DNA from: Dictyostelium discoideum
Taxonomy: Eukaryota
Length of the DNA stretch: 64,000 nucleotides
Reading direction: 5' to 3'
NCBI GenBank assembly: GCA_000004695.1
Contig: CM000155.2
Coordinates: forward strand, 3,104,001-3,168,000
Positions 7,375-37,824 of the stretch are shown here, in pieces. The position numbers and the translations under genes were made by a program. Numbering within the stretch: the stretch's first letter is position 1; the number at the start of each line of letters is the position of its first letter. The notes beneath the pieces are model-generated. The model worked only from the letters and a program-made list of their open reading frames with translations. It was not told the origin of the DNA and did not search any database.

Positions 7375-7596
7375 TTATTTTGAATGGATGATCATTTAAA
7401 ATTAAAAAAAAAAAAAAACTAAAAAATTCAATGAAAAAAAAAAAAAAAAAGTAAAAAAAAAAAAGTATAATAAATTAATATTAATTTTTTTAATTTAACC
7501 ACATTTAAAACAAAAAAAGTAATAAACATTATTAATTGTTTAATAAAAAAAAATAATAATGATAAAAAAGTAATAAACATTATTAATTGTTTAATG

Positions 7597-7627
<31 letters not shown>

Positions 7628-7919
7628 AAAATAAATATATAAATTACACAATTGAATAAAATGTTAGAAAATAAAATATTTAATGAAATAGGTAAATTCA
7701 ATATAAAAAAACAAAAATAAAATATTTTCTTATTTTTTAGTTTTATTTTTTATTTTTAATATTTCAAATAATTATACTTTGAATTTCATAATAGAAAATG
7801 AGTTTTTTTTTTTTTAATAGTTTTATAATTACCCATTTTATCTTTTTTTTAATATTTTGGGGTGGTATTTAAAAAAAAAATATTTAATAATTAAAAATTT
7901 TTAAATTTCTTTTATTTAT

Positions 7920-9235
7920 TTAATCTTTTCTTAATTTGTGATAGTGAAGTCTTATTGACATTTTATAATGTGGAGGTATTAAAATTAAAATAACCAAAAC
8001 AAAAATAATTACAAAAAAAACATAACCAATTACAATACCAGCTATTTGAGATTTTGATAAAGATGATGAAGATGATGATGTGCATATTGAATTATCAGAA
8101 TTTGAAGAAGCTGGATTTGAATTTAATAATACAGAAAAGTCTGGATCAATTTCAATTTTTGATTTATATAAAGGTATTTGAATAGCGACAAATGATAATT
8201 TTTTACTTGAGGTTGTATTATTTAATTTTTCATTCTGATTGAAATCTGTTAAAACTTTATTACTAATTGTTTGTACTATTCCATTATCGATAATTGCTCT
8301 TTTTAAAAATCTCAAAAGAAAACAAAATTCACCAACTTGGAGTCCAAAATAATTAAAATTATCATTAAAACCAAATTGTTCACTTGAACAAATGTCATCA
8401 GTTTTTGAAGTTTCAATAAAACTTTTAAATATTAATTCAAATGTATTTAAAGAAGTTGAGAATGGATAATGACCAATTGTTTTTGTGTATTTTAAACATG
8501 ATGGATTTATAGTAAAGTTTTCACCTGCAAATGTTATTTGAGTTTCTTTTTCAAACCATTCGGCTACTACTGTTATTGTTGATACTTGATTAGCACCTTT
8601 TTTAATTTTTGTATTATAAATTACATTGTACTTGAAATGGGTGTGGAGATCCAATCATTATCATTAAAATAATGAATATTTTCAATTGAATTATTGAAAT
8701 TAATTTCACGTATTGCAACAATAGAAACCATTGTATAATTATCATTGCGTTTGAGCTATAAACTATACTATTTTCTACCTGTATATTATAATTATCAATT
8801 ATTGAAACAGTTGATTGAGACCCAAAATGTTTACCTATTATTGTTATGAATGAAACTCCACTTGAAATTAGTGAGATGGTATCAATTGAATTTGATTTCT
8901 TTAATAGAGGTTCATTATTATTTAAGAATTACTTTCACCACTACTGTATGAGTTTGATATTAAATTTTCAATATATGGTAAAGTAATAGTTTGATTGGTT
9001 GAAATATAACTTTTGAAACAGCTATATCCAAATCATAAGCTGAATAACCATTGAAATTGAATGAAGTATCGACAATTCCAAAAACTGATACTATAAAACC
9101 TTTACTTGAACTGAATCCATATGGAATAGAACAGAGTGCTTCATATTGTGCAAAAATGGTTAAATTCGTAGATGGGCCAAATCCCTTTCCTTTTAATTCA
9201 GTATTACATTCAATATTTGTTTTTTTTGATCTTAA
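7920..9235 (-). pseudogene. Truncated, internally deleted copy of the neighbouring tgr-like membrane-protein genes. Only the C-terminal ~244 codons remain in frame; upstream homology is broken.
   Basis: ORF 7920-8654 matches the C-terminal 240 aa of the 9521 and 14866 genes, including the TM segment and the tail HYKMSIRLHYHKLRKD. 8655-9235 stays nucleotide-homologous to segments 10240-10330 and 10660-11170 of gene 2, but the frame is broken and the EGF-encoding and upstream parts are missing. 3' flanks 7860-7920 and 9481-9540 are homologous. Confidence 0.6.
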
Positions 9236-9520
9236 AAAAAAAAAAATATAAAAATAGATAATTTATCTTATTTTTTTTATTTTTTTTTATTTTTTTTTTT
9301 TTATTTATTTATTTTTTTAATTTTTTCAACTAACTCTTTTTTTCATAATTTTGAATTAAGGTAAGAATACAATGAAGATACTGAAGAATATAAACACTTG
9401 AAATATATTTATGTTTATTACTTTTTAATTTTTAACAAAATGGATAATTTACAAAAAAAGTAATGGACATTGTTTAAAAAAAAAAAAAAAATTTTAATAA
9501 TTTTAATTTCATTTATTTAT

Positions 9521-14191
<4,671 letters not shown>

Positions 14192-19504: not shown

Positions 19505-20038
19505 CTTTTGGTTTTTGATTGGACATAAAAAAAAAAAAAAAAAAAAAAGTAAAAAAAAAAAAAAAAGTAAATCAAAAAAAAAAAATTGTGCAAAAGATAT
19601 TTTTATTTTTTTTTTTTTTTTTTCAAAGAATTAACAATTTTTTTAATGGATGTTTTTTTAATTTGTAATGATATAGATATTATCAATTGAAGAATTAACA
19701 ATTTTTTCCTTAAGCCAATTTATGGCAAATATAAAATAGGAATGAATAAACTTTTTAAATTTAATAGGTCTTAAAAAAATAAAAAAAAATAAAAAAATAA
19801 AAAAAGTGAATAAAAAAAAAGTGGATTAAAATCATTTTAAAAAATTAAAAATAAAAATATTTAATTTAAAAATAATATATTTAAAAAGGTGTTTAAATTT
19901 TTTTTATTAGATTTTAAAACTTTAAATAAAAAAAAATAAAAAAACTTGAACATATTTTTATTATATAAAATTAGAAAAAGAGAGAATACTATTTTCTATT
20001 ATCTTTTTTTATTTTTATTTTTATTTTTTTCATTAATT

Positions 20039-22283
20039 TTAAAGGAGAGCTTCAAAATTGAAATTTGCATTATCACTAGTATTACAAATTGATTTGAATG
20101 ATACGACTAAATTACCACCATCGAATTTCCAAACCCAATAAGAACTTTGTTTTTCAACAAATTGGAAGACGATTTTACAATTTTGAGTTGCTTCAACGAA
20201 ACCTTCTTTGACCATATCATCATCTTTACATCTTTTAACGATATTTTGACTGATGTAACGAATGATTTCAGCAAAGACATCACCAACACGTGGTTTATTA
20301 TTTTCTTCTAATTTTGGATAAACTTGTTCGATTGAAGATTCATCATAAGTCCAATCATTACCCAAGACTTCTTTAATCTTTTCGAAAGATTCATTGATTT
20401 TCTCTTGATTCTCTCTCAAATTGATTCTAGAGGCTAAAGTGAGTACACCTGGTGATGGTAAAATTTTAATGAAATCAAAGTTTGCATTATCACTAACATT
20501 GCAAATTGATTTGAAGGTGATTACTAAATCATTGTTTTCAAAACTCCAATTCCAATAACCGTTTGCTTTGGCATTGTGACGGAAAACAATCTTTGCATTT
20601 GAAGTTGCTTCGAGGAAACTTTCTAAAACCATATCCTCTTTACAACGTTTAACGATATTATCAGCGACATATTTAATAATCTCTTGGAATAAGTCACCAA
20701 TTCTTTCTTTATTTCTTTCTTCAAGTGCTGGATAAACAGTTTCCAATGATTGCTCATCATAGGACCAATCTACTTTAGTGACCTCTTTAATTCTTTCAAA
20801 AGCGGTATCGAATTTCTCTTGGTTCTCTTTCAAATTGATTTTAGCAGCTAATGAGAAAACACCTGGTACTGGAAGGACTTTAATGAAATCGAAATTGGCA
20901 TTATCAGAGATATTACAAATTGATTTAAAGGTGATGATTAAATTACCACCTTCAAAGGTCCAATTCCAATAACCACTTGCTTTGGCATTATGACGGAAAA
21001 CAATCTTTGCATTTGAAGTTGCTTCAACGAATGCTTCTAAAATTGTATCATTTTTACATTTCTTTTCAATGTTATCAGCAACATATTTGAAAATATCAGA
21101 GAATAAATCACCAATTCTCTCTTTATTTCTTTCTTCAAGTGCTGGATAAATTTGCTCCAATGATTCTTGCTCATATGACCAATCCATGTGGGTGGCTGCT
21201 TTAATTCTTTCGAAAGCGGTATCGAATTTCTCTTGGTTCTCTTTCATATTCAAACGAGCAGCTAATGAGAAAACACCTGGAACTGGGAGAACTTTAATGA
21301 AATCGTAGTTGGCATTATCAGAGATATTACTAATGGATTTGAAAGTAATGATGAGATCACCATTAGCGAATGACCAATTCCAATAGCCTGTGGTTTGTTT
21401 TGGATTATGTCTGAAACTAATTCTACCATTGGCAGTTACATCATTGAAACTTTCTAAAGTCATTTCATCTTTACAACGTTTTTCAATGTTTTGAGCAACG
21501 TATTCTAAAATTTGAGCAAATGTAGTACCAAATTGTTCACGTTGACTTTCATGTTCAAAAGCAGTTGGATAAACAGTTTCCATTGATGCTTCATCAAATG
21601 ACCAATCTCTACTGGTAACTACTTTAATTCTTTCGAATGCAAGTTCAAATCTTTCTTGATTCTTTTTCATATTAAGACGAGTTGGTAAACTATAAGCACC
21701 TTCACTTGGAATCACTTTATATAATTCGAAATTACCAGCTTCAGTAATATTATTACAACCTTTCTTGAATAAAAGATTTAATTGACCACCATTAAATGCA
21801 TACTTCCAATAGGATGAATTCTTGGCATCTTCATTAACAATTAATACAATCTTTTTAGCAGTATTTGCATTAATGATTGATTCTTTAGTTAATTCATCTT
21901 TTGATGCATTTACAATACATTTACTAATATTTGGACATAAATTTTTATAAAATACTTCACCCTTTTTTTAAAAAAAAAAAGAATTGATTAGATAAAAAAT
22001 GAAAATTAAAAAGAAAAAAAAAAAAATTACTTACTAATTGTTTTTTAACATGTTCATCAACTTTATCGAAAATGGCATCCCAATCAAATTCAATAATCCA
22101 TTCTTCACCATTTAAAGCATTTTTGATTTCTTCATGTGCTTTATTTAAGTGTTCTTCATTATCTCTTAATGATTTTCTGAAAAATAAAAAATAAAAAAAT
22201 GAAAAGAGTAAATAATTTGAACTTGATATTTTTTTATTTTTTTTTATTACTGTCTTTTTTTTTTATTTACCTAGCAACAAGGT
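20039..22283 (-). CDS. Protein made of five tandem ~135-aa repeats of an uncharacterised domain (N-terminal helical half, C-terminal beta-rich half ending ...YWNW(T/S)FEGGNLIITFKSICN(I/V)SDNANFDF). Three exons.
   Basis: ATG 22283-22281. Exon 1 (MPLNLVAR) donor GTAAAT at 22260. Exon 2 22176-22035, donor GTAAGT. Exon 3 21961-20039. The track ORF 20039-21715 begins at an internal GTG. The repeats are clear in the translation: LP(V/S)PGV(F/L)SLAA(R/K)(L/I)N(M/L)KENQEKFDTAFERIK... appears four times, plus a more divergent first copy. Confidence 0.6.
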
Positions 22284-22895
22284 TTAAAGGCATTTTAAAA
22301 AATTATATGTTTGTAATATCACAATGGTTTATAAAAAAAAAAAAAAAAAAAAAAAAATTTATATACAAAATTAAAAAAAAAAAAAAACAAAACAAAACAA
22401 AATATCTTTAAAAAACTGCTTTTTTTTTATAAAAATCAAAATATTGGGAAAAAAAAATGAATGAATCAAATCATTTTCCCTAAATTTTTTAGACAGATAT
22501 TTTATAAAAAAAAAAAAAAAAAGTTAGATTCCGGGCTAACAAAAAAATCAAAGAAAATAAAAAATATTTTTTATTTTTTTATAATTTTTTTTTAAAACTC
22601 GCAACACACTTAAGTCGAAAATATCTAAAAAAATTTTAAATATTTGACAAATTATAATAAAAATTTAATTTTTTTGAAACATAATATGACGTCAAATTAA
22701 ATAAATAAATATAAAAAAAAAAAAAACAAAATCCATTTTTAGAATGTCCACCTCGTGAATGAGCTTGAAAATAAAAGTAAAAAAAAAAAAAAAGAGGAGA
22801 CTTACCGACCAGCGCATAAAATTATCCAACCACATCATCAGTTTTTTTTTTTTTTTTAAAAAATTCTCTAAAATTATTTGCATTTTATTTTATTT

Positions 22896-23618
22896 TTATT
22901 TTAAAACTAAATCATTTGAAATGTTTGTAAATTTCGAAGTAATATCCCAAAGTTTTTTAGAAATTTCAATACTATTGAATTGTCTTGGAGTTTCAGTTAA
23001 TACACCAATGTTAAAGTAAGAACCTTTAATACCATTAAGTGATGGATCAGTACCAAGTGCAACTTTTGCACATTCTTTAGAAGCAACTTGAATTGGAGTG
23101 AAAATAAAATTTGGCATCAATGAAAAAGCAACTTTTAAAATACCAGTAAAATCACGTTGTAAACTAGTTTGAACTTTACCAGGATTAATTGAATTTACTA
23201 CTATTTTAGAACCTTTTTCAATTAATTTTCTTTGTAATTCCTTTGTGAATAATAGATTACAACATTTCGAAAGTGAATAATCTTTTAATTGATTATAGTT
23301 TGCCTCTGATTCAACATTTATTTTATCATTTAAAATCAATGATAAATCGGCATCTTTAAATCTATCAGATGTTAAAACTAAAATTCTTGGATTTTCACTT
23401 TTTTCCAAATTTTTTAATAATAAATTTGTTAATAAAAATGGACCAAAATGATTAGTAGCAATTTGAAATGAATAACCATCTTGAGTTATTGAAAATGGTG
23501 GACACATAACACCTGCATTATTAATTAATAAATCTAATGGTAAATTTAATTTATTAAATTCATTTACAAATGATTTTACTGACTATTTTTTTTTTTTTTT
23601 AAAAAAAATAATTTATTA

Positions 23619-23681
<63 letters not shown>

Positions 23682-23907
23682 GATTAAATTAAATTACATT
23701 TTGTTTACTAAGATCTAAATCTAAAATGATAATATTACTATTTCCAGTGTGTGATGAAATTTCTTTAGCAGCAACTTCACCTTTTTGTTTATTTCTACAT
23801 CCAATAACAATTGTGCCAATTTCTCTTGCAATTATCTTACAAGTTTCTTTTCCTATTCCATCACTTCCACCAGTTATAATTGCAACTTTATTATTTAATT
23901 TATTCAT
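22896..23907 (-). CDS. Short-chain dehydrogenase/reductase (retinol dehydrogenase/WWOX-like SDR). Two exons, intron 23583-23697.
   Basis: Exon 1 (23907-23698) carries the Rossmann motif IITGGSDGIGKE and a GTAATT donor. Exon 2 (23582-22896) starts at TCAGTAAAATCA and carries the YSLSK catalytic motif (YxxxK). The intron is dominated by a ~65-nt homopolymer. Confidence 0.75.
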
Positions 23908-24845
23908 TTTAATTTAATTTAATTTATTATTTTATTAATTATTAATTGTTTTGATTGATTATTTTTTTTTTTTTTCTTTAATTTTCCATTTAAATAGTTT
24001 TTTTTTTTTTTTTTTTTATTCATTTATTAATATAATTTTTTTTTTTTTTTTGGTATTAGTTTATCCTGGTTATTTTAATAAATTATTTTTAGAATCTTGA
24101 TAAGAATTTTCTTTATTTTTTGTTATTTTTTTTTGAAAATCACATTAAAAAAAAAGATTTTTTTTTTTTTCAAAGGAAATAAGATATTTTTTTTTTTTTT
24201 TTTCAAAGTAAAAAAGATATTTTTTTTTTTTTTCGAGCTTTGGTATTCCCAATTAATAATGACGTATTAATTCATGCTAAAATAAAATATGTTCTTTCAA
24301 AAATTGGAAATAAATCATATTATTATTATTATAATATTTTTTTTTTACAAATATTTTTAGAATTTTCTTAATTTCAGAGCATGGATATTAAGGTCACACT
24401 CTTTTTTTATTTTGATTATAACCCACAACAACTAAACATTACGTACAAAAAAAAAATGGTAGACTAGATTTTCCATTTATTTTTTGATTAATTAACGTTA
24501 GTCATCTGATTTAAAATCTTAAGAAACCAGCACAGAGAAATCTAAATAAATAAAAAAAAAATTACCAGGCAATATTAAAACGATGACAATAACAATAAAA
24601 AATAAAATAAATAAAAAAAAAAAAATTAAAATAAACTAAAATAAACTAAAATTATATTATTTAAATAATATCGTTGTTGCAAATATTAACTTTAAAATTA
24701 TACATAATTTATATAAAAATAAATAATTTAATATATTATTATTTTTTTTTAAAAAAAGAAATAACCAAAATATTTATTGTAAATAAAAGATTTAAATTTA
24801 TTTAAAAATAATCTTTTTTTTTTTTTTTTTTTTTTTTTTATTCTT

Positions 24846-25901
24846 TTATTCTTTTGAATTTAATATTGTTAAAATTTCATCGTCAGATAATGGTTGTAAA
24901 TTACGTTCATTTCTATTGAGTATAATTTCATTTTTCCAATAGTTATGATGATCATATTCATGATCTGAGGCACCAGTGAATTCTTTTTCTAAATCATTTG
25001 GCTCAAAGAATTGGGAGAAAACTTTAATTTTTTGTTTTTCACCATTTGCGAAAACGATCTTTTTATAGGTAACTTTATTGATGAATGGTGAGATGGTAGT
25101 CCAGAAAACATTGAAAATGAAGGGAGTTTCCACTAAAAAGGCATTACCGAGACGCTCTGGATAATGGTCGGATAAAATTTGAAGAACATACTTACTAACA
25201 GACATTGGTGGTGAATTTCTAATTGAATAGTTTTTAAAGTCGATTAACAATACAATTTGTTCGTGGCCACGTGTTTTATCCATTAATGATATTGCTCTTT
25301 CAATGTTGTAAACCATTAATCTGATTTGGTTATCATGGTTTTTAGTATTCTCTCTCACTGGTCTAAGATAGATAACACTTCTGCCATGTGATTTACCAAA
25401 TACGTATTGTTTACCTGAGGATGCTTCATAGGATAATGATTCGGCTGTAATCTCGTATGGCTTATATTTGCTTCTCCATTCCAATGTATTCTTTAGTAGA
25501 TTGAATGATAAAGAGAGATCATAATCTCTTGCTCTTAAATATCTTAATAATAACATATCACCACCATCCTCTAACCATTCTCTCTCCTTTTCTGATATCT
25601 CTCCAAATCCTGTGTTTGTTGATTTTTCATTACCATCTTTCCATACTTTTTCTTTAAATTGTTTGAAAATATTAATTTGTTTTTCACTTAAATTTTTAAA
25701 TGGGTTAAATTCACCACCATCTTCAAATTTTGTATTATTATATATTTCATTATCTTCACCTGTTACTGATGATGCACTATTTGTATTACTATCTGTTAAA
25801 TCTGAAGTTGAAATATCTTGTTCACTTTTTGTTGTAGTTGTTGTGGTTGTGGTTGTTGCAGTGGTTTCTTCATTTTTATTTTTTTTATCTTTTTTTCCCA
25901 T
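24846..25901 (-). CDS. Sec14-like / CRAL-TRIO domain phosphatidylinositol-transfer-type protein (351 aa), single exon.
   Basis: ATG 25901. CRAL-TRIO N-terminal region LLLRYLRARDYDLSLSFNLLKNTLEWR. Lipid-binding core GRSVIYLRPVREN...LLIDFKNYS...HYPERLGNAFLVETPFIFNVFW. Confidence 0.75.
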   Translation of the reverse strand: MGKKDKKNKNEETTATTTTTTTTTKSEQDISTSDLTDSNTNSASSVTGEDNEIYNNTKFEDGGEFNPFKNLSEKQINIFKQFKEKVWKDGNEKSTNTGFGEISEKEREWLEDGGDMLLLRYLRARDYDLSLSFNLLKNTLEWRSKYKPYEITAESLSYEASSGKQYVFGKSHGRSVIYLRPVRENTKNHDNQIRLMVYNIERAISLMDKTRGHEQIVLLIDFKNYSIRNSPPMSVSKYVLQILSDHYPERLGNAFLVETPFIFNVFWTTISPFINKVTYKKIVFANGEKQKIKVFSQFFEPNDLEKEFTGASDHEYDHHNYWKNEIILNRNERNLQPLSDDEILTILNSKE

Positions 25902-25907
25902 TTTTTA

Positions 25908-25938
<31 letters not shown>

Positions 25939-25998
25939 TTTTTTATCTTTTTTTTTTAATCTTTTTTTTTTTTCTGTGGTTTGATTACTTAGTGGTTG

Positions 25999-26031
<33 letters not shown>

Positions 26032-26317
26032 GAAAAAAGATTTTTTTTTTTGTTTTTTTTTTTTTTTTTAAAATAAATATTTATTTAAATTTTAATTTTT
26101 TTTTATATTTTTTTTTTTTTTATTTTTTTTTTTTTTTTATTTTTTTTTATTTAATTTTTTTTTTTTCCGATACGTATTTTCATTATAAAGTTCAGATCTC
26201 ATTTTTTTCAAGATTCGAAATATTCTTTATTTTTTATTTAAATAAAATAATATCCCCACCTTTTCCTCCCCTTTTTTTTTATTTTTAATTTTTATTTTTC
26301 CAAAAGACTAAAAATTA

Positions 26318-26353
<36 letters not shown>

Positions 26354-26385
26354 AAATTTCAGATTATTATGATTTTTTATTTATA

Positions 26386-26398
26386 ATGACAAGTGTTG

Positions 26399-26431
<33 letters not shown>

Positions 26432-27357
26432 GTAATAGTAATATAATTGAAACTAAATTAATTGGACATAAAGATACAGTATTATGTATTTCAAGTCATA
26501 ATAAAAAAGAGATAATAGCAAGTGGTTCAGATGATTGCACTGTTAGAATATGGGATTTAAATACAAATAAATCAATACAATCAATTGTTGAAGGATTTCA
26601 AGGTAACCCAGTTAATAACGTTTGTTTTGATCAAGATTTCACTCTTTATTGTTCATATGATAATATTATAGTTTCATTTGATTTAAGACAACCAAATGTA
26701 ATCTTAAAAGAATTTAATACTCAATATAAATTTAATACTGAAGAAATTAATCAAGTATGTAATTTTTAAAAAAAATTAATTATATATATATATATATTTC
26801 TTTTTCATTGCCACTTTTTACCATTTTTAAAAAATAATATAAACTGATAAAAAAAAAAAAAAAAAAAAAAGTTAAGTTTTGATTCAAAATATCAATATTT
26901 AGCAGCATGTGATGATTCAGGTCAAACTAAAATTATTGATGTTACAAAAAATAAATTAGTAGAATCATTAAATAAAAAGCATACAAATATAGCAACAGGT
27001 TGTGTTTTTAGACCAAATAGTAAAAATGAATTAATTACATCTTCAATGGATTTTTCAATCATTCATTGGGATTTCTTAAAAGCAAAAGTTTTACATAGAG
27101 ATACATTTAAAGAAGGTTCTTTACCTCAAAATATTTCAAAATCACAACAACAACAACAAGAAACAACAGAACCAAATAGAATGTTAAATCCACCATTCGT
27201 TACAAGTGTTGATTGTTCAAATAATTCAAAATATGTAGCTATTTCAATGGGTGATGGTACAATTGTAATTAATGAAATTTCAAGTTTTAAACAATATTTA
27301 AAAATAAATTCTATACATAAATCTTCAATTCAACAAGTGTATGTTATAATTATTCTT

Positions 27358-27398
<41 letters not shown>

Positions 27399-27704
27399 TC
27401 ATTATTTTACTAATATTAAAATTAATTTTAAAGTCATTATCCAAAATATTTAGAAAATAATTATCAAAGACTAATTTCATTTGGGAATTATGATAAAAAG
27501 ATAGTAATTTGGGATGTTTCTGAAGATATGAATACAAAAGTTTCATCATCTTTATTATCAAATGATGAAAAAAATAATGAAAGAATTAAAACATGGCTTG
27601 AACATTCTGAAAAAATTAATTGTTTAACAACTTCAAATTTAAAAAATAATGCAATATTTGTTGCCGATTTATCAAATGATTTAAAACTATTATCAATTCA
27701 ATAA
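26386..27704 (+). CDS. WD40-repeat protein. Three exons: 26386-26754, 26872-27338, 27434-27704.
   Basis: WD-like units (GHKDTVLCIS...DCTVRIWDL; KKIVIWDV). Donors GTATGT at 26755 and 27339. Acceptors AG at 26870-26871 and 27432-27433 keep one frame. Stop TAA at 27702-27704. Confidence 0.6.
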
Positions 27705-28338
27705 TTTCCTTTAGAGTTTTTCAAATAATTAATAAACTTATATATAATAATAAAAATAAATAGATAAATCATTATTATTAGAATTTCTTTTATTTTTTTT
27801 TTATTTTTTTTTTTATTGTTTTTTTAAATTTTTTATTAATTTTTTTTTTTATCCAATTAGATAATGAAATTGTTATTTGTTAATTTTTTATTTATTGGAA
27901 TTTGTTGGTCAAGTGCTAAATAGGTTTAGATACCTGAAATTAAAATTAATTTAATAAAATTAAAAAGGAAATTTACAAAAAAGAAGTAATATTGACTTCT
28001 TAAGAAGTAATATTGACTTCTTAATTTCAATATTACTTCTTAAAAAAATTTTATGATTATCATTTATTCCCATTCCCTCTTTAATTTTTTTAAAAAATTA
28101 TAAAATTTTTTTAGAATTTTCTATTTTTATTTTTTGTTTGTTTATTAATATTATTGTATTTGGGAACATTGTCCTCTTCAATTAGGTTCTTGATTCAAAA
28201 GCACCATATTCAAAAATGGCAATGGAAGAGTGAAAATGTCTTTCATTTATTCAAAATTTTAGTACGAATTGGTGGTTAAAATTAATATTATCATATTTTT
28301 TATATTTTATAATGTATAAATTATAAGAATTCATAAAA

Positions 28339-28411
28339 GGGGATGTAGCTCAGATGGTAGAGCGCTCGCTTAGCATGCGAGAGGTAAAGGGATCGATACC
28401 CTTCTTCTCCA
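28339..28411 (+). tRNA. tRNA-Ala (anticodon AGC)
   Basis: GGGGATGTAGCTCAGATGGTAGAGCGCTCGCTTAGCATGCGAGAGGTAAAGGGATCGATACCCTTCTTCTCCA. Cloverleaf fits, with a G3:U70 pair and AGC in the anticodon loop CTTAGCATG. Confidence 0.85.
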
Positions 28412-28866
28412 CTTTATAATTTATTGTGTAAAGTGATACTTTACGAAGTTCGGGTTTGGAAATCGAAAATAAAAATTAAAAAAATAATAAAAATAAAATA
28501 AAAACATTTTTCGTTTTTCGAAAAATTCAGTTTTTCACTTTGAATACAAATAACAATATTAGTATTATTTATTAATTTGAATTTCTAAACATCTATTTAA
28601 TTTATACATATTTATCTATAAATTTAACAATTGTATGGAATCTTAATATTATTAATTGTCACGACTTTCAGTTTTATATTTATTAGTATTACCATTACAA
28701 GTTTTTAATAGTCATAATATTAATAAGAATACTATAATAATACTTCTTATTTTAACTCATTATTTAATAATACTATTAACAATTATTTATTTAACAGATT
28801 TTCAAGATTTGTTTGAAAATTCCTAAATTGGAATTTTCAAAATAAAAATTTAGATATTAATTTTAA

Positions 28867-28905
<39 letters not shown>

Positions 28906-29758
28906 ATTTTTTTGCAGATCTTAATAAAATTAAGATTAACAGAGACGTTGCAAGACTAAAGAATGAGGAATAAAAAAAGATATAAATAGTGGGATATTTT
29001 AAAAGGACCACAGATTTTATTATCAATTTTTAACCATTTATTACATTTTAATTTAATATTACACAATAAATATATACATAAACAAATTATATTAATTTAG
29101 GTAAATACATAATAAAATAATAAATTATATAAACGTTATCAAAATTATTACTTAAAATAAATAAATAATTTAAAAATGAGTGAACCAGGAAATATCACAA
29201 CTAAAAGACAGCTTCAACAACAATTAAATGAAAGAATTACAGAAGAAATAAACAAGATAAACCAGCGGAAGATCTTTACATATATTTATATATTTATTTT
29301 TATATATATTTATTTATATATTTATATTTATTTATAAAAATATATTTAATTATATATTTATTTATATATTTATATATTTTTATATTTTTATATATTTTTA
29401 TATATTTATATTTATATTGCATTACATGTTAAATTTATAACAAAGTAGTTTGGTTAATTATATAGATGTTTAAAAATAATAAATCAAATAATACCAATGT
29501 TTTGTTTTTTTATTTTTTATTTTTTTATTTTTATTTTTATTTTTTATAAACTGAATTGGTAAAATACCAATGTATTTCACATTTATTAGTTTGTAAAATA
29601 CTTTGGTATTTTACGAAGTTTAGTTTATATGATTTTTTAAAAAAAGAAAATTTAAAAATTTTTTTTTTTTTCGAAAATGAAAATGATTTTTTGAAAAAAG
29701 AAAATTTAAAAATTTTGGAATTGAAAATGTGGTATATTTTTCAAAGAATTTCAAGAAA

Positions 29759-29831
29759 GCTCGATTAGCTCAGTCGGCAGAGCGTGGTGCTAATAACGCC
29801 ACGGTCGCAGGTTCGATCCCTGCATCGAGCA
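29759..29831 (+). tRNA. tRNA-Ile (anticodon AAT)
   Basis: GCTCGATTAGCTCAGTCGGCAGAGCGTGGTGCTAATAACGCCACGGTCGCAGGTTCGATCCCTGCATCGAGCA. Anticodon stem TGGTG/CGCCA with loop CTAATAA. Confidence 0.85.
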
Positions 29832-29861
29832 AGTATTTTTATACAACCCAAAATGGTCGTT

Positions 29862-29872
29862 GGTTCGATTCC
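29862..29872 (+). promoter_or_regulatory. External B box (ex-B, GGTTCGATTCC) 31 bp downstream of tRNA-Ile
   Basis: Perfect B-box consensus GGTTCGANTCC outside the tRNA body. Dictyostelium tRNA genes commonly carry a second downstream B box. Confidence 0.5.
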
Positions 29873-29939
29873 TTCCTAATCAACTGACCACTTAATTGAA
29901 ATTCATAAATAAAACTATTAATTATTGTTTATTTGTTAT

Positions 29940-30515
29940 AAATGATCTTTTTTCATGTTGAAAGACCCACATATACACAAAACAGAATTTCAAAAAGATC
30001 TATTCTTTAAAGGATATAGTTACAATCAATTATTCCCAAACATATTGAAGATAAGAGATACGAAAACCAAAAACACAATGTTCAGATTTCATTCAAGATG
30101 TTTACCTCTAAATTATCTTCACAATAAAGATTGTCCATTGTGTAATATGAATATGAAAAATGATCCATATAGATCACCTATAATACCTTCTAACATGTAA
30201 AAAGATCATGACATAAACATAGACTACATTCATTCAAAATTTTGAATGGTGCTACAAAGCTATAGATTATGACCTCTCTAGACATTTTCATATAAAAATA
30301 TAATAGCACTGATATTACACCAAATTTGGATATGGATTTGCAATCAAATATACAGCGAAGACAAAACTTTAAACTATCATCATCAAAAGACTCACTTTCA
30401 ATCTGTAATAAAAACGAATACATAAATCAAATTAAAAATATCAAAAAACAAATAATCAAAGAATACTGTATACCAATCATAGCCCTACCAAATAGAGAAA
30501 TTTTTGACCAATTTC

Positions 30516-30545
<30 letters not shown>
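29940..30545 (+). mobile_element. 5'-truncated non-LTR retrotransposon 3' fragment (TRE3-like), ending in poly(A). It begins ~109 bp downstream of tRNA-Ile.
   Basis: ~600-bp block with clearly lower AT content and an A/C-rich plus strand. Degenerate ORF with an ORF2-C-terminal-like Cys/His motif HSRCLPLNYLHNKDCPLC. Terminates in A27 at 30519-30545. The position matches the known TRE3 preference for ~100 bp downstream of tRNA genes. Confidence 0.4.
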
Positions 30546-30549
<4 letters not shown>

Positions 30550-30999
30550 AAATACAACAATATAACCAATTATTACTATTCAAATAATTAAAATAAAATA
30601 AAATAAACATTATTATTATTTATTTGTTTATTATTATAATTATCTTAAATGAAGACAATTTAGCAATGGAGAGATGAAACTATCTCGAAAACAAGGATTT
30701 TAAGTATCTCTATAGAGAATTAATAGTTTTATCTGTTTCGCAATTTTAATCCTTGTCGACTAATATTAATATTTAATTATTCCTAATTCTATTTAATTGT
30801 ATTTCTAATTTTTTCATTTTTTGTATTTTTTACTTCTAAAATATATAAATTAAATCATTTTTTTATTTTTAAAAAATATTTTTTATATTTATAATCTATT
30901 TTGAATTTTATTTTTTTAAAAAATGAATAAATAAGGAGATGTTCTATTTTTATTTTGTAATCATTTTGATTAATTAATTTTTAATTTTAAAAAATAATT

Positions 31000-31042
<43 letters not shown>

Positions 31043-31283
31043 CCACACCCCAAATCAAATAAATTTATTATTATTTTATTATTTTTATTTTTTTCACACT
31101 TTAATAATATACAACATAAAAAATAAAAATATAAAATAAATATAAAATAAAACATTTCAAATAATTTTTTTTATTAATACGATAATCATTAATATATAAA
31201 TAAAATCATATATAAATAATAAATATATAGATAGTATAGAAAGTTCAAAAAAAAAAAAAAAAAAAAGTTAAAAAGAAAATAAG

Positions 31284-32807
31284 ATGGTCAACATCTTCCT
31301 AATCATTGTTGCGGTTGTTATACCAGCACTTGTAGCTTTAGGAAGTTTGTATTTAATTGCATACTTTCAACATCCTGACGATAAAAATGTTGCCTATTTC
31401 CCGAAGATTATTGTTATTTTAGGTATTACTTTAGCAGCAACAAGTATATTAATGTTACCATTGGATGTAGCAAATCAAGGAGGAAAAGGCGGATTTCCAA
31501 TGGATATATTATGGATTGTTATATATATAGTAGTTGCAGTATTTGCAATTGTTATATGCCCATTTGCAATGTTCTTTTATGAATCAGAAGAAGCAGATCC
31601 AGCAGCAGGTAGTCAAATTGCAGGTGCATTCAAAGGTACATTTGCAATTCTTTTTGCATTTGCAGCATTAACTATTGTTTTATATGTATTCTTTGGAGTT
31701 GCAGAGATACCAACCATAGTGATTTTAAGTAGATTCCAAATTATTAATTATCCAATAGCAACTGATAGTATTAATATAACAACAACATTACCAGAGATAG
31801 CGTCAATCGTTGGTGGAGGGAATGATAAAATTAAATTGGATCCTGGAAATCCAGAATTATTAGGTAATGGCTCTGAATATGTAGAGTATCGTTTAGATAA
31901 AGAGTTTTTACAATTCCGTGTATCAATTGCACTTTTCATTATTACTATGGTTGCTTTCTTTGGTTGGTTATTATTCATTATTTTCGGTGGTATTGGTTTG
32001 GTTGCCCTTCCATTCGATATGATTACAGACTTTAAGAATCGTCCACAACGTATACCATACGATAAATATTTGGAAAGAAAGAAAAAGATTGGTGAACGTG
32101 CCACGGAATTGGTTGACGTTGGTAAGACCATTCAGTCACGTACCACTGGTGGTATCATGAGCAAACGTGATAGAAGAAATTACAATCGTTTCCGTCAAGC
32201 AATTTTCTTATTAGAAGAGGATTATGAACGTTTAAAGATTTCATACAAGAGACAAGGTGGCAAGGTCATACTTTATTATGCCCAGTTCTTTGGTGGTTTC
32301 ATTGCATTGGGTGTTAGTCTTGGTTGGCTACTTCATATCATAATCTATATGATCACAGCTCCAGAGCCATTCCATCCTTTCTTAAATAGTTTGGTGATAT
32401 CTTTGAATAATGCTTGGGGTTTCCTTGGTGTTATCGTCTATGGTTTACTCTCTTTCTATTTATTGTTCTGTGTTGTCAAGGGTAATTTCAAATTTGGGTT
32501 ACGTCTTTTCTTCCTCTTCCCAATTCACCCAATGAGGGTTGGTAATACCATGATGAATGCTTTCCTATTCAATGTTGGTTTAATCCTTATCACATCGGTT
32601 TCAATCACTCACTTTTGTACAATGGCTTTCTCTCAATTCACTTCAACAACTTCCATTAATTCACTCTTTGAAACTGCTGTTAAAAATCTTAAAATCTTAA
32701 AATGGTTCTGGGTTGTCTATATCTTTGCCATCTTTGCTATGTCAATTCTTACTGCTATCTTTTTATTCATTAAACCTAAAGATAAACCAGCTAGAATTCG
32801 TGTATAA
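31284..32807 (+). CDS. LMBR1-domain multi-pass membrane protein (LMBRD1 / lysosomal cobalamin transport escort-like), 507 aa, single exon.
   Basis: ~9 predicted TM helices. Central charged loop [25 protein letters not shown] resembles the LMBD1 loop ARDKRALKQFEEKLRTLKKRERHLE. N-terminal LPLDVANQ motif. Confidence 0.55.
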
Positions 32808-33355
32808 TTAATTATAATAATATATTAATATTTCAAAAAATCATAATCAATAAAATCATTTTATTTCATTTCAATTGTTTTTTTTCTATTTATTTTAAAT
32901 TTAATTATTTTAAATATAATTATAATATAATTATAATATTAATAATAACAATTATATTGAGTATATTCAATAATCAAAAAAAAAAAAAAAAAATGTAAAT
33001 AAAAACAAAAATAAAAATTAATTGTTTGAGATTTTAGATCGTAATAGTTTTTTAGAATCAAATCGTATAAAATTTTTAATGCATTATCTTTTTTCATTTC
33101 AATATTATTAGAATCACATAGTTTTTTAATAAAATGAATTTGTCAAAAGAGATACTAAAATAAAATTATTATTTTGATTTGATTTAAATACAGATATTAT
33201 TTTAGTTTAGATCATCAATATTTATTAATGCTTTGATTGTTTTTTTCTTATTTTTTGTATGTATGGAAATTATTTTGTGTTAGATTTTCTTTGATCATTA
33301 ATTGTGTGTTCCTTTATTTATTAAATCAATACATAAATAAAAACTACTTCGAAAA

Positions 33356-33365
33356 GAATCGAACC
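33356..33365 (-). promoter_or_regulatory. External B box (GGTTCGATTC on the minus strand) 32 bp downstream of the minus-strand tRNA-Lys
   Basis: The plus-strand sequence gaatcgaacc is the reverse complement of the B-box consensus. Confidence 0.5.
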
Positions 33366-33396
33366 ATTGACTATTTTTGTTCCAAATGAAAAGTTT

Positions 33397-33469
33397 CGCC
33401 CAAAGGGGGGCTCGAACCCCCGACCACAAGGTTAAAAGCCTTGCGCTCTACCGACTGAGCTATCTGGGC
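33397..33469 (-). tRNA. tRNA-Lys (anticodon TTT), copy 1
   Basis: Reverse complement GCCCAGATAGCTCAGTCGGTAGAGCGCAAGGCTTTTAACCTTGTGGTCGGGGGTTCGAGCCCCCCTTTGGGCG. Anticodon loop CTTTTAA. Confidence 0.85.
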
Positions 33470-33514
33470 TTTGGATGAAAAAATATTTTTTAAAAAATAT
33501 AATATATCTAATTT

Positions 33515-33978
33515 CAGATCGAAAAAAACAAACAACAACAACAATCTCTTTTTTTGATTATTTCATTTTTCATATAAAAAAGACTTAAAAAACAAATAAA
33601 TAAATAAATAAACTATTTTAAAAAGCCATCTTTTTACTTTATTGTAATTTATTATTTGTTTCGTTTTGAGAATTTTGCGTAGCAAAATTTTCAAAAAAAA
33701 AGCAAAAAATAATCAGATCGAAAAAAACAAACAACAACAACAATCTCTTTTTTTGATTATTTCATTTTTCATATAAAAAAGACTTAAAAAACAAATAAAT
33801 AAATAAATAAACTATTTTAAAAAGCCATCTTTTTACTTTATTGTAATTTATTATTTGTTTCGTTTTGAGAATTTTGCGTAGCAAAATTTTCAAAAAAAAA
33901 GCAAAAAATAATCAGATCGAAAAAAACAAACAACAACAATCTCTTTTTTTGATTATTTCATTTTTCATATAAAAAAGA

Positions 33979-33990
<12 letters not shown>
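33515..33990 (+). repeat. Tandem array of TRE5-A A-modules: ~200-bp unit x 2.4
   Basis: Units start with cagatcgaaaaaaacaaacaacaac at 33514, 33714 and 33913. The third unit is truncated and replaced by poly(A). Confidence 0.8.
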
Positions 33991-34014
<24 letters not shown>

Positions 34015-34090
34015 GGAACCCAAGTTAATCAGAAAATTTCCAGATTTTTAACTTTTTAAAGAAAAATAAAAAAAATAGAAAGAAAATAAG

Positions 34091-35425
34091 ATGAAAATCA
34101 CAAACAACACCACAAATATTAAGCAACACAAATGCCTACAAAAAATAAGCGAAATTGTGGATAAAACTCAATTAAAAAAAAAACAATTCAAATACGTCAT
34201 AAACATCAATCACGAACCAGACGATAAAATAAAAAAAGATTTAGAAAAAAGTTTGGACAAAAAAGATGTTTTAATCAAAAGTAATAATACATTCAAAATT
34301 CTCACAGACAGTATTAGTACAGTAATCTATTTTGTAAATATGTTTGATGCAGAATTAAAAGGACAATTTATAACCACTATAAGACCAAAAAATATGTATA
34401 CAGATTTTGATTGGTATAAATCACTCACAGAAATAGAATGGGTAATAGAAAATGAAGGATGTAAACTAATTAAATTAGAAATTAAAGGCGAAACTCTAAT
34501 TATCAAAACAGTGAAAAGAGTCGTAGAAGAATTTGACACTATCATTGAACTAGACAATCTAACATTAATTGGACACTCCAACAAAGGATGGAGAGATCAA
34601 ACCTCATTACCAGAAAATCAAGAAGAAAACAAAAATAAAAAACAATCAGATGAACAACAACCACAATCTACATCAGAACAAATACCAAAACAAGGAAAAA
34701 GAACAATCATTATCCCACCAATCACATCCTCATCTAATGATAAAACATTTATGGCCCTAGATGATACAGCTCAAAAGGTAATAGAAGCATCACTAGAAAA
34801 CGTAGATGAACTAACAAGAATAGAGAATGAGATCAATACACAATCGATAAACAATCAAGAAATTAAAACAAAATCAGAAAAACCTATCGAACCACCATCT
34901 CCATACAATACACCAATAAAACAACACGGCGAAACAAAGGGACTAACAACGGAAGAAAAACTTAGAGAGGCAAATGATATCTTCGACTTCACCAGCCCAA
35001 ACACTGATGCAATAAGAAAAATAGAATTCCCACTTTCAATCCCTTCAAATCAATGGTTCTTCTCCTCTCCAATAAAACATATCATGAGTTTCAGCCCAAC
35101 CTATGGTACACCATCGAAAATTATCGATTCACCAAGTAAATTGTTAAACACACCAAAAAAGAAACAACAAGACAAAACAAACAAGACCAACAAAACACCA
35201 GTCAAACCAAAATTGGGTGAATATGGACAAAAAAGCATAAAAACAAAAATGGATGAAGATATAGACAACTTCAACAAGGAAATTCTAAAACAAATCAATA
35301 AATCAAAAAACCCCACAAACACACAAGACCAACAACACAACGAACAAAGTAAAGATCAGTTAGAAGACAAAATAAACCAGAAACTTCAAAAGGTAGATAA
35401 AAATCTACCCCAAATAAAACTATAA
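34091..35425 (+). CDS. TRE5-A ORF1 protein (444 aa), intact reading frame
   Basis: ATG-initiated ORF MKITNNTTNIKQHKCLQKISEIVDK.... The same N-terminal 60 codons recur in the 3' B-module at 35824-36002. Confidence 0.7.
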   Translation: MKITNNTTNIKQHKCLQKISEIVDKTQLKKKQFKYVININHEPDDKIKKDLEKSLDKKDVLIKSNNTFKILTDSISTVIYFVNMFDAELKGQFITTIRPKNMYTDFDWYKSLTEIEWVIENEGCKLIKLEIKGETLIIKTVKRVVEEFDTIIELDNLTLIGHSNKGWRDQTSLPENQEENKNKKQSDEQQPQSTSEQIPKQGKRTIIIPPITSSSNDKTFMALDDTAQKVIEASLENVDELTRIENEINTQSINNQEIKTKSEKPIEPPSPYNTPIKQHGETKGLTTEEKLREANDIFDFTSPNTDAIRKIEFPLSIPSNQWFFSSPIKHIMSFSPTYGTPSKIIDSPSKLLNTPKKKQQDKTNKTNKTPVKPKLGEYGQKSIKTKMDEDIDNFNKEILKQINKSKNPTNTQDQQHNEQSKDQLEDKINQKLQKVDKNLPQIKL

Positions 35426-35439
35426 AGAAAAACACAATA

Positions 35440-35700
35440 AGAATAGGTGTTTGGAACATCCAAGGATCCAACACCATCCAATCTGCCAGCATAATAAACA
35501 CCGTTTTAGACAACAACAAGCTGGACGCAGCACTTCTAACTGAAACAAATATAAAAACAAATAAAATTTACTCAATAAATCAACAATATAAAAACAAAAT
35601 AACACACCACGCACCAATTGATAAAACAGGACAAGGGGTGTCACAAATCATCATCAACACCCGCAATAGAACTTCCTAAACATCTCAAAAAATACAATAA
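35440..35700 (+). pseudogene. Truncated ORF2 (endonuclease N-terminus only) of the TRE5-A copy
   Basis: RIGVWNIQGSNTIQSASIINTVLDNNKLDAALLTETNIK... ends after ~85 codons and is followed by the 3' B-module poly(A). Confidence 0.55.
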
Positions 35701-35721
35701 TTCACTCAGTACTTTCTATAA

Positions 35722-35782
<61 letters not shown>

Positions 35783-37182
35783 CAAGTTAATCAGAAAAAT
35801 AAAAAAGATAGAAAGAAAATAAAATGAAAATCACAAACAACACCACAAATATTAAGCAACACAAATGCCTACAAAAAATAAGCGAAATTGTGGATAAAAC
35901 TCAATTAAAAAAAAAACAATTCAAATACGTCATAAACATCAATCACGAACCAGACGATAAAATAAAAAAAGATTTAGAAAAAAGTTTGGACAAAAAAGAT
36001 GTTTTAATCAAAAAGACCCTGTAAAAAAAAAAAATAAATAAAATGAGATCTAGCATCTCAAGGAGAAGCAAATAATAATTGCGTTATCCAATTCAAAAAA
36101 AAAAATATATCTAATTTCCAAATTCAAAATAGTGAATTAAATATTAACCAACAATTTAGTGTCTATGGAGATATTAATGATAAAACTAGCGATTATATTT
36201 TGGTTTTATACCAACAGTACAGAAGTTCTCCTGGTAATATAATAGTTAATAATGTTGAAGAACAACATCAATGTTATCAATCGAATAACGAAAATTCAAA
36301 TGTATTGGGTAAACCATTGGAAAAAGTAGAACATGGTCACGTGGAGCATTTCTCTCCAAATAGTCGAGATTGTGATAGATCAAAACCTGTAGACATCGAA
36401 ACCGATAAAAATTAGAAATTTAATTTTTTGGGTACTATTGACAGTAGAAGTTAAGAAAGTAAAGCAGAATCAACACCAACTAGTACTATTCAAGGTAGTT
36501 TAATCAGTGTATGGTCATTTGATAGATCAGTTGATCATGTTGTTTTAGGAACAACTGTAAAACATGGTATGAGTGATAGTGGTAGTTGGAAGTAACATCA
36601 AACATAATAACAATTACCATATTAAAGAACATAACAAAGTAAGTGAAAAAGTTATCTATTTAAATTCAAAAAATCCATTTGCTGAATTCTATAATCACAA
36701 ACCATTTACAAATAATTTTACTATCAATCATTAATGAGTTAAAATTTACTCAAGATATATTAAAAATTTTTTAAAATAAAAATAATTAAATAAATAAAAA
36801 TTATAAAAAGTTTAGATAATAGTTTTTTTTTTATTTATTTTTAAAAATAATCTATTTTCAATATATACTCCGCTCATTGTTGTATAAATTATAAACCAAT
36901 TAAATTTTTGATTAAAAAAAAAAGGTAAAGAAAACTGAATATTTAATCCCATTGTTTGTTTGAGATTTTAGATCCATCATCTTTTGTCCATTTCAATATT
37001 ATAAGAATCATTGAATTTTTATAATATTGATCAATCAAATATGGAAGAATATTATAATTTTAATATCAATAACCAACATCATGTCATGAATTCTATAGTT
37101 TTCATGCCACTGGTGGTGAATCGGTTGAACCAGAAGATGAATAATAAATATTTTTAGATGGATGAGATATATCATCTCAAGG

Positions 37183-37334
37183 AGAAGCAAATAACATTTG
37201 CGCTACCCATTCAAAAGCTTCTCTTTGAGTAAATTAATGATAACTTTTTTTTGAATTGGATAACGCAATTATTAGTTTCTTTTCCTTGAGATGCTAGATT
37301 TCATTTTATTTGTAGTAATTTTACAGGGTCTTTA
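37183..37334. repeat. Palindromic cluster of TRE5-A C-module fragments: a direct partial copy at 37183-37227 and an inverted, near-complete copy at 37235-37334
   Basis: 37235-37334 is the reverse complement of 36003-36100 (aaagaccctgtaaa...catctcaaggagaagcaaataa..ttgcgttatccaattcaaaaaaaa). 37183-37227 repeats atctcaaggagaagcaaataacatttgcgctacccattcaaaag in direct orientation. Confidence 0.6.
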
Positions 37335-37443: not shown

Positions 37444-37516
37444 GCCCAGATAGCTCAGTCGGTAGAGCGCAAGGCTTTTAACCTTGTGGTCGGGGGTTCG
37501 AGCCCCCCTTTGGGCG
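37444..37516 (+). tRNA. tRNA-Lys (anticodon TTT), copy 2, identical to copy 1 and in inverted orientation
   Basis: The same 73-nt sequence as 33397-33469 on the opposite strand. The immediate 5' flanks are similar (tttttcat..ccaa). Confidence 0.85.
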
Positions 37517-37545: not shown

Positions 37546-37555
37546 GGTTCGATTC
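37546..37555 (+). promoter_or_regulatory. External B box GGTTCGATTC 30 bp downstream of tRNA-Lys copy 2
   Basis: Consensus B-box match outside the tRNA body. Confidence 0.5.
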
Positions 37556-37824
37556 TGATTAAAAATTATATCACCATTTTTTAAATCGTAAATTAAAAAT
37601 CAAAAATTAAAATCTCAAATGACTTGGTTGTTTTTTATTAATTCGATAATATATTTAAAACTGATATATTGAAAAATAAAAAATTTCTCTAAAGAGAAAC
37701 AAATTCAATTGAATCCTCTCAAAATATTTATTTATTTTTTAAATCAAAAACTTTGGATGATAACTTCATATTTTAAATAATATTTTGTTGGATATTAAAA
37801 AAAAAAAAAAAAAAAAAAATCTGT

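Follow-up and report, generated by a model that had tools for sequence, protein, structure and literature searches.

The tRNA gene-targeted retrotransposons (TREs) of Dictyostelium discoideum make up about 3.7% of its genome, and 61% of its tRNA genes carry at least one of them (PMC5006619). The TRE5 and TRE3 groups have in common the APE-RT-ZF architecture of their ORF2 (PMC5006619) but differ in where they settle: TRE5 elements lie about 40 to 54 bp upstream of tRNA genes and in the opposite orientation, whereas TRE3 elements as a rule insert 40 to 150 bp past the 3′ end of the tRNA gene, read in the same direction as it, and go with an internal or external B box (PMC5911963). TRE3-like elements, but no TRE5-like elements, are present in D. 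purpureum (PMC5006619). The catalogued TRE3 subfamilies of D. discoideum (PMC5006619 Table 1) are Dd_TRE3-A (consensus of 5229 bp; 67 copies, 14-228 bp downstream of a tRNA gene), Dd_TRE3-B (5279 bp; 43 copies, 34-188 bp downstream), Dd_TRE3-C (4734 bp; 29 copies, 14-305 bp downstream), and Dd_TRE3-D, which is represented by a partial 1559-bp consensus and 11 copies, none intact, 49-285 bp downstream.

Here, we describe a block of roughly 580 nt, A/C-rich and running up to a poly(A) tract, that lies behind a tRNA-Ile gene in a 64-kb stretch of DNA (hereafter the window, meaning the whole stretch analyzed, in whose numbering all coordinates are given). We interpret this block, with a probability of about 0.93, as what is left of the 3′ end of a D. 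discoideum TRE3-type non-LTR (LINE-like) retrotransposon; TRE3 is preferred over TRE5 because of where the block and its relatives lie, rather than because of a rooted tree that includes labelled references. The kind of element is already known: this is an ordinary, long-dead, 5′-truncated TRE3-type copy at the usual site.

The tRNA-Ile locus and its surroundings

The window has a GC content of 22% and is rich in homopolymer runs. Positions 20017-36118 are 99.6 to 100% identical to a contig of another D. discoideum assembly (L001; GCA_054883475.1), and, judged by its sequence, the window is D. discoideum nuclear DNA. Its four tRNA genes are clustered, and one of them, tRNA-Ile(AAU), is the Pol III target gene of the insertion:

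28339-28412, + strand: tRNA-Ala (ARAGORN, Rfam)
29759-29831, + strand: tRNA-Ile(AAU), anticodon AAT on the DNA (ARAGORN; Rfam tRNA, 64.1 bits)
29810-29820, + strand: internal B box of tRNA-Ile, GGTTCGATCCC (regular expression)
29862-29872, + strand: external B box, GGTTCGATTCC, 31 bp past the tRNA-Ile 3′ end (pattern match)
29873-29957, + strand: spacer from external B box to element, without homology to relatives upstream of about 29958
33397-33469, − strand: tRNA-Lys (ARAGORN, Rfam)
37444-37516, + strand: tRNA-Lys (ARAGORN, Rfam)

A reading of the DNA made earlier from its letters alone (the sequence-only reading) had placed a perfect external B box just 3′ of tRNA-Ile, and GGTTCGATTCC is indeed found there, at 29862-29872. 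The pattern GGTTCGANTCY has three matches in the window, where shuffled sequence would give 0.02, and all of them sit some tens of bases past the 3′ end of a tRNA gene; these matches are genuine external B boxes. The same motif follows the tRNA genes at two loci that carry relatives of the block (L003 and L007, described below).

The spacer at 29873-29957 is most likely target DNA. The 5′ junction of the block is confined to the interval 29941-29960 and not to a single base: the base composition changes at about 29941, i.e., 109 bp past the end of tRNA-Ile (the gap of ~109 bp noted earlier) and 68 bp past the external B box, and homology to ORF2 is first demonstrable at 29955-29961, i.e., 123 to 129 bp past tRNA-Ile; in the DNA alignment it starts at about 29958, which is 126 bp past tRNA-Ile and 85 bp past the external B box. 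Block and tRNA-Ile are both on the + strand, with the truncated 5′ end of the block pointing toward the tRNA gene, and the next tRNA gene past its 3′ end is about 2.85 kb away.

This tRNA cluster also hosts a TRE5-A copy (33516-36104) of textbook form, which has a 14-bp target-site duplication and lies 46 bp upstream of the neighboring tRNA-Lys, about 3 kb from the block. Because this TRE5-A copy, duplication included, sits upstream of tRNA-Lys, TRE activity at the cluster is real. Its proximity, together with an APE-RT-ZF architecture that is the same in the ORF2 of both groups (PMC5006619), could suggest that the block itself is a fragment of a TRE5-type rather than a TRE3-type element. The arrangement speaks against this: TRE5 elements are found upstream of tRNA genes and in opposite orientation (PMC5911963), whereas the block lies downstream of tRNA-Ile in the same orientation, and there is no tRNA gene within 2.8 kb past the block's other end. 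The TRE5-A copy of the window shows no sequence similarity to the block. Together with the evidence from relatives (below), position and orientation make a TRE5 origin very improbable.

In base composition, which the sequence-only reading had called nongenomic and estimated at ~65% AT, the block does stand out against its flanks (GC content of 26.8% versus 13%), but the AT content measures 73.2%, with A+C at 60.6% on the + strand, and 26% of same-size segments within the window reach the GC content of the block; 5% match both its GC content and its strand asymmetry. The composition looks coding-like rather than foreign. The terminal tract, previously counted as A27, is A28 at 30519-30546. Since the window contains 25 A or T runs with a length of ≥27 nt (67 if all those of ≥18 nt are counted), a poly(A) run alone is weak evidence; the A28 run becomes meaningful because the ORF2 stop codon abuts it. 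Neither the poly(A) run nor the base composition, both weak indicators in this genome, was retained as evidence standing by itself.

Homology to ORF2 proteins and positions of related copies

Within the block, an 81-aa ORF (29955-30200) encloses a zinc-knuckle-like string, and the following features are recognizable:

29958-30520, + strand: 5′-truncated, degenerate 3′ end of an ORF2, in all probability TRE3-type (phmmer, Pfam domains of the matches, tblastn, DNA alignment, blastn)
30090-30143, + strand: proximal half of the ORF2 Cys/His (zinc-knuckle) domain, HSRCLPLNYLHNKDCPLC (within the 81-aa ORF; family alignment)
30518-30520, + strand: original ORF2 stop codon TAA, after ...LPNREIFDQFL (relatives end in ...LPNxxxxDQFI, then stop)
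30519-30546, + strand: poly(A) tail, A28 (run search)

An exhaustive phmmer (HMMER) search of 1.84 billion representative proteins with the translation of 29946-30197 (84 aa) returned 17 proteins at E values of ≤1e-3, 11 of which have E values below 1e-10. The best match (E = 3.8e-28, 75% identity) is P0002, from D. cf. discoideum, and matches from D. purpureum display 59% identity; the hosts of the ten matches checked by name are D. discoideum, D. cf. discoideum, D. citrinum, D. purpureum, or metagenome records, and a subsequent profile search added a homologue from D. dimigraforme. A word-index protein search with the 81-aa ORF had returned a single protein, P0001, and missed relatives of 75% identity, so its negative outcome is uninformative.

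The domain content of the matches points to their nature. One protein of 1189 aa (P0004) carries Exo_endo_phos and RVT_1 (Pfam) and matches the block at residues 936-1009, and three others (P0003, P0006, and P0014) carry RVT_1 (Pfam); these are non-LTR ORF2 products with the APE-RT-ZF layout described for TREs. When all collected proteins were compared with the window by tblastn, only 29955-30517 was matched, with the matches spread over frames 3, 1, and 2. At the 3′ end, LPNREIFDQFL* of the block aligns with LPNLISFDQFI of P0003 and LPNRVIVDQFI of P0002. Since the TAA at 30518-30520 merges into the A-run, with which it has bases in common, the block has no 3′ UTR and consists entirely of ORF2 coding sequence. 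In the full-length P0004, the counterpart of the block is approximately the final 255 of 1189 codons (about the last fifth of ORF2), and the APE and RT parts are missing from the block owing to 5′ truncation.

In intact relatives, the Cys/His region follows the pattern C-X6-H-X4-C-X2-C-X10-H-X4-C (for example, RCLPINHLHNTNCPLCNIPMSNDPYGHLFIKC in P0004), and in the family alignment C49 is invariant and R48, L50, and P51 are nearly so. The CCHC-like zinc knuckle proposed from the sequence is borne out by the string at 30090-30143, but only as the proximal part of the domain, the distal His and Cys having been deleted from this copy. A Pfam scan of the ORF of the block yielded only a sub-threshold RING-finger match, which is uninformative.

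At the DNA level, blastn aligns the block with four loci (L002, L003, L004, and L007) at 75 to 83% identity over about 550 nt. In a window that holds 25 A or T runs of ≥27 nt and in which short ORFs are common, the A-run, the AT-rich ORF, and the tRNA gene might have come together by chance; an E value of 3.8e-28 in a search of 1.84 billion proteins, this DNA identity to four independent loci, and homology that is co-linear as far as the stop codon at the A-run make that explanation negligibly probable.

The identical sequence in the second assembly (GCA_054883475.1) carries a gene model, the hypothetical protein ACTFIT_012363 (P0001), whose spliced product is 110 aa long and to which the ORF is 98% identical, so that the block could be taken for a host protein-coding gene. 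This model, however, requires an intron to bypass the stop codon and frameshifts, and its product would fuse two non-contiguous pieces of ORF2; its homologues are retroelement ORF2 tails only, it has no significant Pfam domain, and the distal zinc ligands and about 230 nt are lost in comparison with family members. We consider a host gene slightly less probable still than a TRE5 fragment and regard ACTFIT_012363 as a transposon-derived annotation artefact that ought to be masked. The two outcomes that the sequence-only reading had named as counting against it did not occur: the best match is not a cellular gene, the sole "cellular" match, P0001, being an automatic gene model on the same fragment in the second assembly, and retroelement similarity is present.

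Of the six loci examined for the surroundings of relatives (L002-L007), five carry them downstream of a tRNA gene and on the same strand:

L003: tRNA-Pro (+), external B box, 5′-truncated copy starting in the RT region (+)
L004 (D. cf. discoideum): tRNA-Val (+), element (+)
L005: tRNA gene (+), full-length element after 62 bp (+), 12-bp target-site duplication
L006: tRNA-Lys (+), ORF1-ORF2 (+)
L007: tRNA-Arg (+), external B box, spacer of about 88 bp, 5′-truncated ORF2 tail, A-rich end (+)

The full-length element at L005 is about 5.23 kb long and has an ORF1 (417 aa) and an ORF2, and L006 also carries a TRE5-A ORF1, without a TRE5-A ORF2. The remaining locus, L002, departs from this pattern, which speaks against the TRE3 reading: it lies inside a transposon cluster and has no tRNA gene within 10 kb. 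The arrangement at L007 is a near twin of that in the window.

These loci bear on the choice between the two TRE groups, in that each of the five relatives that have a tRNA gene close by is found on its downstream side, contrary to what a TRE5 fragment would lead one to expect. Moreover, no collected family member matches the start of the ORF2 of the window's TRE5-A (blastx), a word-index search seeded with this TRE5-A remnant returned only fragments of 123 to 127 aa, and close matches come from D. purpureum, which is without TRE5 (PMC5006619). The block combines ORF2-type ancestry, a poly(A) tail, the distance and orientation of a TRE3, and relatives that target the region downstream of tRNA genes. 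The dead, 5′-truncated TRE3-type insertion first proposed from the letters alone is thereby upheld by C-terminal ORF2 homology (E values to 4e-28), by the stop codon at the poly(A), and by position and orientation.

Subfamily, decay, and origin of the copy

Pairwise comparison of the long proteins separates three D. discoideum lineages. The P0027/P0047 lineage is abundant, with an element of about 5.23 kb, and is (with L005) probably Dd_TRE3-A, whose 5229 bp its length fits; Dd_TRE3-A was formerly named Tdd-3. The P0029/P0031/P0045 lineage, likewise abundant, is 40% identical to the first, has an element of about 5.3 kb, and is probably TRE3-B. The third, the P0040 lineage, is rare and 58% identical to the P0027/P0047 lineage. 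In an unlabelled neighbor-joining (NJ) tree of the C-terminal domain, the block groups with the rare lineage (L002/P0050, L007/P0049, P0046, and, from D. cf. discoideum, L004/P0002) and forms its own branch inside it. L002 and L007 are 87% identical in DNA sequence, and the block is 76 to 77% identical to these two and 79 to 81% identical to L004.

From these comparisons, the block appears to belong to a rare TRE3 lineage that is separate from the two abundant ones. Its subfamily, arrived at by elimination, is likely TRE3-C or TRE3-D, and its degenerate, fragment-only state fits TRE3-D; at 76 to 77% identity to L002 and L007, it may represent the second of these two rare subfamilies rather than theirs. 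It could also descend from a TRE3-like lineage that is not among the catalogued subfamilies A to D, perhaps older and extinct, with its nearest living kin in D. cf. discoideum: the closest protein (P0002, 75%) is from that organism, the DNA is closer to the D. cf. discoideum copy (79 to 81%) than to the D. discoideum copies L002 and L007 (76 to 77%), and the block branches alone within its lineage in the NJ tree. Yet a decayed 0.6-kb 3′ fragment is the expected look of TRE3-D (PMC5006619 Table 1), and such divergence is expected from the neutral decay of an old copy. We regard this lineage as an unlikely source, and an insertion that predates the split from D. cf. discoideum as similarly improbable; in either case, the block would be a small molecular fossil from the time when TRE3 elements began to diversify, preserved behind a tRNA gene that has an external B box.

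The decay of the TRE3-type copy can be followed in a DNA alignment of the block with L003, L004, and L007, from which the lesions were called:

30174/30175, + strand: deletion point, about 145 nt lost (nucleotides present in L003, L004, and L007)
30198-30200, + strand: premature in-frame stop TAA (Lys codon in relatives)
near 30240, + strand: 14-nt deletion, frameshift (DNA alignment)
near 30285, + strand: 1-nt deletion, frameshift (DNA alignment)
30362/30363, + strand: second large deletion, about 85 nt lost (versus L004 and L007; blastn segment breaks)

With the 145-nt deletion, the zinc knuckle lost its distal His-X4-Cys codons. The four deletions, two of them large, and one or more premature stops have abolished the coding capacity of the block.

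A search for a target-site duplication around the block returned no direct repeat of ≥11 nt in the flanks, the 5′ junction being uncertain by about 20 bp; the longest word common to the flanks is an AT-rich 10-mer about 70 nt past the tail and out of register. Such duplications are a hallmark of target-primed reverse transcription and not specific to the TRE3 family; those of L005 and of the window's TRE5-A copy measure 12 to 14 bp. That none flanks the block counts against the TRE3 reading, although this outcome is expected of an old copy with so uncertain a junction. An empty-site allele was sought via the neighboring LMBR1 gene, which returned only the same contig. We also considered a 10-bp hairpin just ahead of the tail (30493-30519; z scores of −3.0 and −4.5 within 91 and 43 nt, respectively) as a conserved 3′-end recognition structure and rejected it, as no such fold forms at the corresponding ends of L003, L004, and L007; the hairpin is specific to this copy and probably incidental.

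By analogy with L1-like and TRE biology, the element RNA would have been inserted by target-primed reverse transcription, in which copying of the RNA would begin at its poly(A) end from a nick made in the target by the ORF2 endonuclease. The site may have been chosen via the Pol III transcription complex, with TFIIIC at the internal or the external B box, although according to reviews the protein contacts in TRE3 targeting are not experimentally established. Reverse transcription presumably halted early, so that only the last roughly 0.6 to 0.8 kb were copied, which would account for the 5′ truncation, and the copy would then have decayed neutrally, with no present function.

Given that 61% of tRNA genes carry TREs (PMC5006619), a tRNA gene followed by a decayed TRE3 tail is only to be expected, and the locus has very little significance outside annotation. 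It also adds a further case of a layout composed of a tRNA gene, an external B box, a spacer of about 70 to 90 bp (85 bp here and about 88 bp in L007), and a TRE3, the layout that underlies the idea that B-box-bound TFIIIC positions TRE3 integration.

Comparison with other elements at tRNA genes

Skipper-2, a chromovirus LTR retrotransposon, occupies the same niche as the block, downstream of dictyostelid tRNA genes (PMC5006619). Unlike the block, it is of the LTR type, has RT-RNH-IN and a chromodomain, and lacks a poly(A) tail. The LTRs and Gag/RT-RNH-IN proteins of Skipper-2 and DGLT-A have no counterpart here: the homologues of the block are of the APE-RT-ZF type, the block ends in poly(A), and self-comparison of the window revealed neither a repeat partner nor a second copy of it.

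Dd_TRE5-A (DRE) is closer, as it belongs, like the block, to the TRE superfamily (L1-like non-LTR elements) and resembles it in the domain order of ORF2, in its poly(A) end, and in targeting Pol III genes; unlike the block, it inserts about 50 bp upstream of its target, in opposite orientation, and has modular A/B/C UTRs.

Dd_TRE3-A (the P0027/L005 lineage) has the ORF2 architecture of the block and the same kind of C terminus (...DQFI*). The amino acid identity between P0027 and the block is about 38% (BLASTP, 266 positions), or 54% over common alignment columns, and DNA similarity between the P0027 lineage and the block is limited to a 122-nt stretch. Furthermore, stop codon and poly(A) are separated by a 3′ UTR of about 105 nt in the P0027 lineage, and the lineage of the block has none.

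The nearest described systems are Dd_TRE3-C and Dd_TRE3-D, reportedly characterized by Glöckner et al. in 2001 as rare, tRNA gene-targeted non-LTR retrotransposons of D. discoideum. Like the block, they follow a tRNA gene and are oriented as it is, with the distance of the block inside their published ranges, and they have an oligo(A) end and an ORF2 with a Cys/His tail; TRE3-D further resembles the block in being both rare and degenerate (11 copies, none intact).

Annotation and hairpin of the TRE3 tail

In the other D. discoideum assembly (GCA_054883475.1), the dead TRE3 ORF2 tail makes up the whole of ACTFIT_012363, a single-intron gene model for a 110-aa "hypothetical protein" that is very likely an annotation artefact. 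A hairpin is also present at the 3' end of the tail:

Window 30078-30197 and 30302-30520: parts of ACTFIT_012363, equivalent to 10001-10443 of the corresponding contig (L001)
Window 30493-30519: perfect 10-bp hairpin, UAGAGAAAUU / AAUUUCUCUA, with a 7-nt loop, directly 5' of the poly(A) and overlapping its start

This hairpin scores z = -3.0 when folded within 91 nt and z = -4.5 within 43 nt. L003, L004, and L007, three genomic loci of TRE3-family relatives, do not share it at their corresponding ends.

With an 81-aa query, only one candidate came out of a word-index protein search, which missed P0002, the best protein match to the ORF of the tail (from D. cf. discoideum, with 75% identity and many shared 5-mers). 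P0002 was recovered by an exhaustive HMMER search. Negatives from the word-index search are untrustworthy for short proteins from AT-rich genomes.

TRE3 relatives at other loci

Among RT-containing relatives in D. discoideum, the closest is P0040, the ORF2 protein at locus L002, whose ORF2 tail contains a 917-nt AT-rich repetitive insertion (L002 12742-13658). It has no tRNA gene within 10 kb and resides in a transposon cluster, where its neighbours are an LTR retrotransposon (RT-RNaseH-integrase) and a gene for a DDE_Tnp_4 transposase. At two other family loci, L005 and L006, full-length TRE3 elements form head-to-tail pairs behind one tRNA gene:

L005 758-6008 and about 6050-11305: paired full-length TRE3 elements
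L006 about 7830-13155 and 13200 onward: paired full-length TRE3 elements

Every paired element is flanked by a separate target-site duplication (in L005, ATAAGAGATCAA and ATAATGCATAA), and the pairs fit a history in which one tRNA gene was hit repeatedly. In L005 this gene (613-696), which received an odd anticodon call from ARAGORN, may contain an intron.

tRNA genes and external B boxes

A canonical external B box lies 30-40 bp beyond the 3' end of three of the four tRNA genes in the window:

29862-29872, plus strand: external B box
33355-33365, minus strand: external B box
37546-37556, plus strand: external B box

For the remaining gene, tRNA-Ala (28339-28412), the only counterpart is a degenerate motif, AGTTCGGGTTT, near 28445. 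An A31 run (28872-28902) closes the ~460 bp downstream of this gene, in which tblastn of the collected family proteins onto the window found no TRE3-family homology.

The two tRNA-Lys(UUU) genes (33397-33469, minus strand; 37444-37516, plus strand) are 4 kb apart and point away from each other. This divergent arrangement, their equal Rfam scores (72.6 bits each), and flanks that are alike in short stretches (81% between 36965-37026 and 33072-33131) suggest an old inverted duplication of the tRNA locus.

TRE5-A sequences beside the tRNA-Lys genes

Between these genes lies a complete but internally deleted TRE5-A element, and two smaller pieces resemble its C-module:

33516-36104, plus strand: TRE5-A element (TRE5-A.2-like), flanks 33502-33515 and 36105-36118
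34091-35425, plus strand: intact TRE5-A ORF1, 444 aa
37162-37216, plus strand: C-module-like piece, 88% identity to 36012-36102
37245-37333, minus strand: C-module-like piece, 88% identity to 36012-36102

The element opens with a tandem array of ~2.4 A-modules of 199 bp, followed in order by an A-run, a B-module, ORF1, the start of ORF2 (its first ~80 codons), A57, a second B-module with a repeated ORF1 start, a C-module, and oligo(A). Its flanks form a perfect target-site duplication of 14 bp, ATATATCTAATTTC.

The C-module-like pieces, mutually inverted and located 110-280 bp before the start of the tRNA-Lys gene on the plus strand (37444), are probably leftovers of older TRE5 insertions; comparable pieces occur close to tRNA genes in L003, L005, and L006.

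Whereas window 33489-36118 holds a single TRE5-A unit followed by unique sequence, L001 13400-18575 holds two tandem units, each with a 444-aa ORF1 gene, and the contig ends within the second copy; either the strains differ here or one assembly is in error. The element in the window is oriented opposite to the minus-strand tRNA-Lys and lies 46 bp upstream of it, a site and orientation that are as expected for TRE5.
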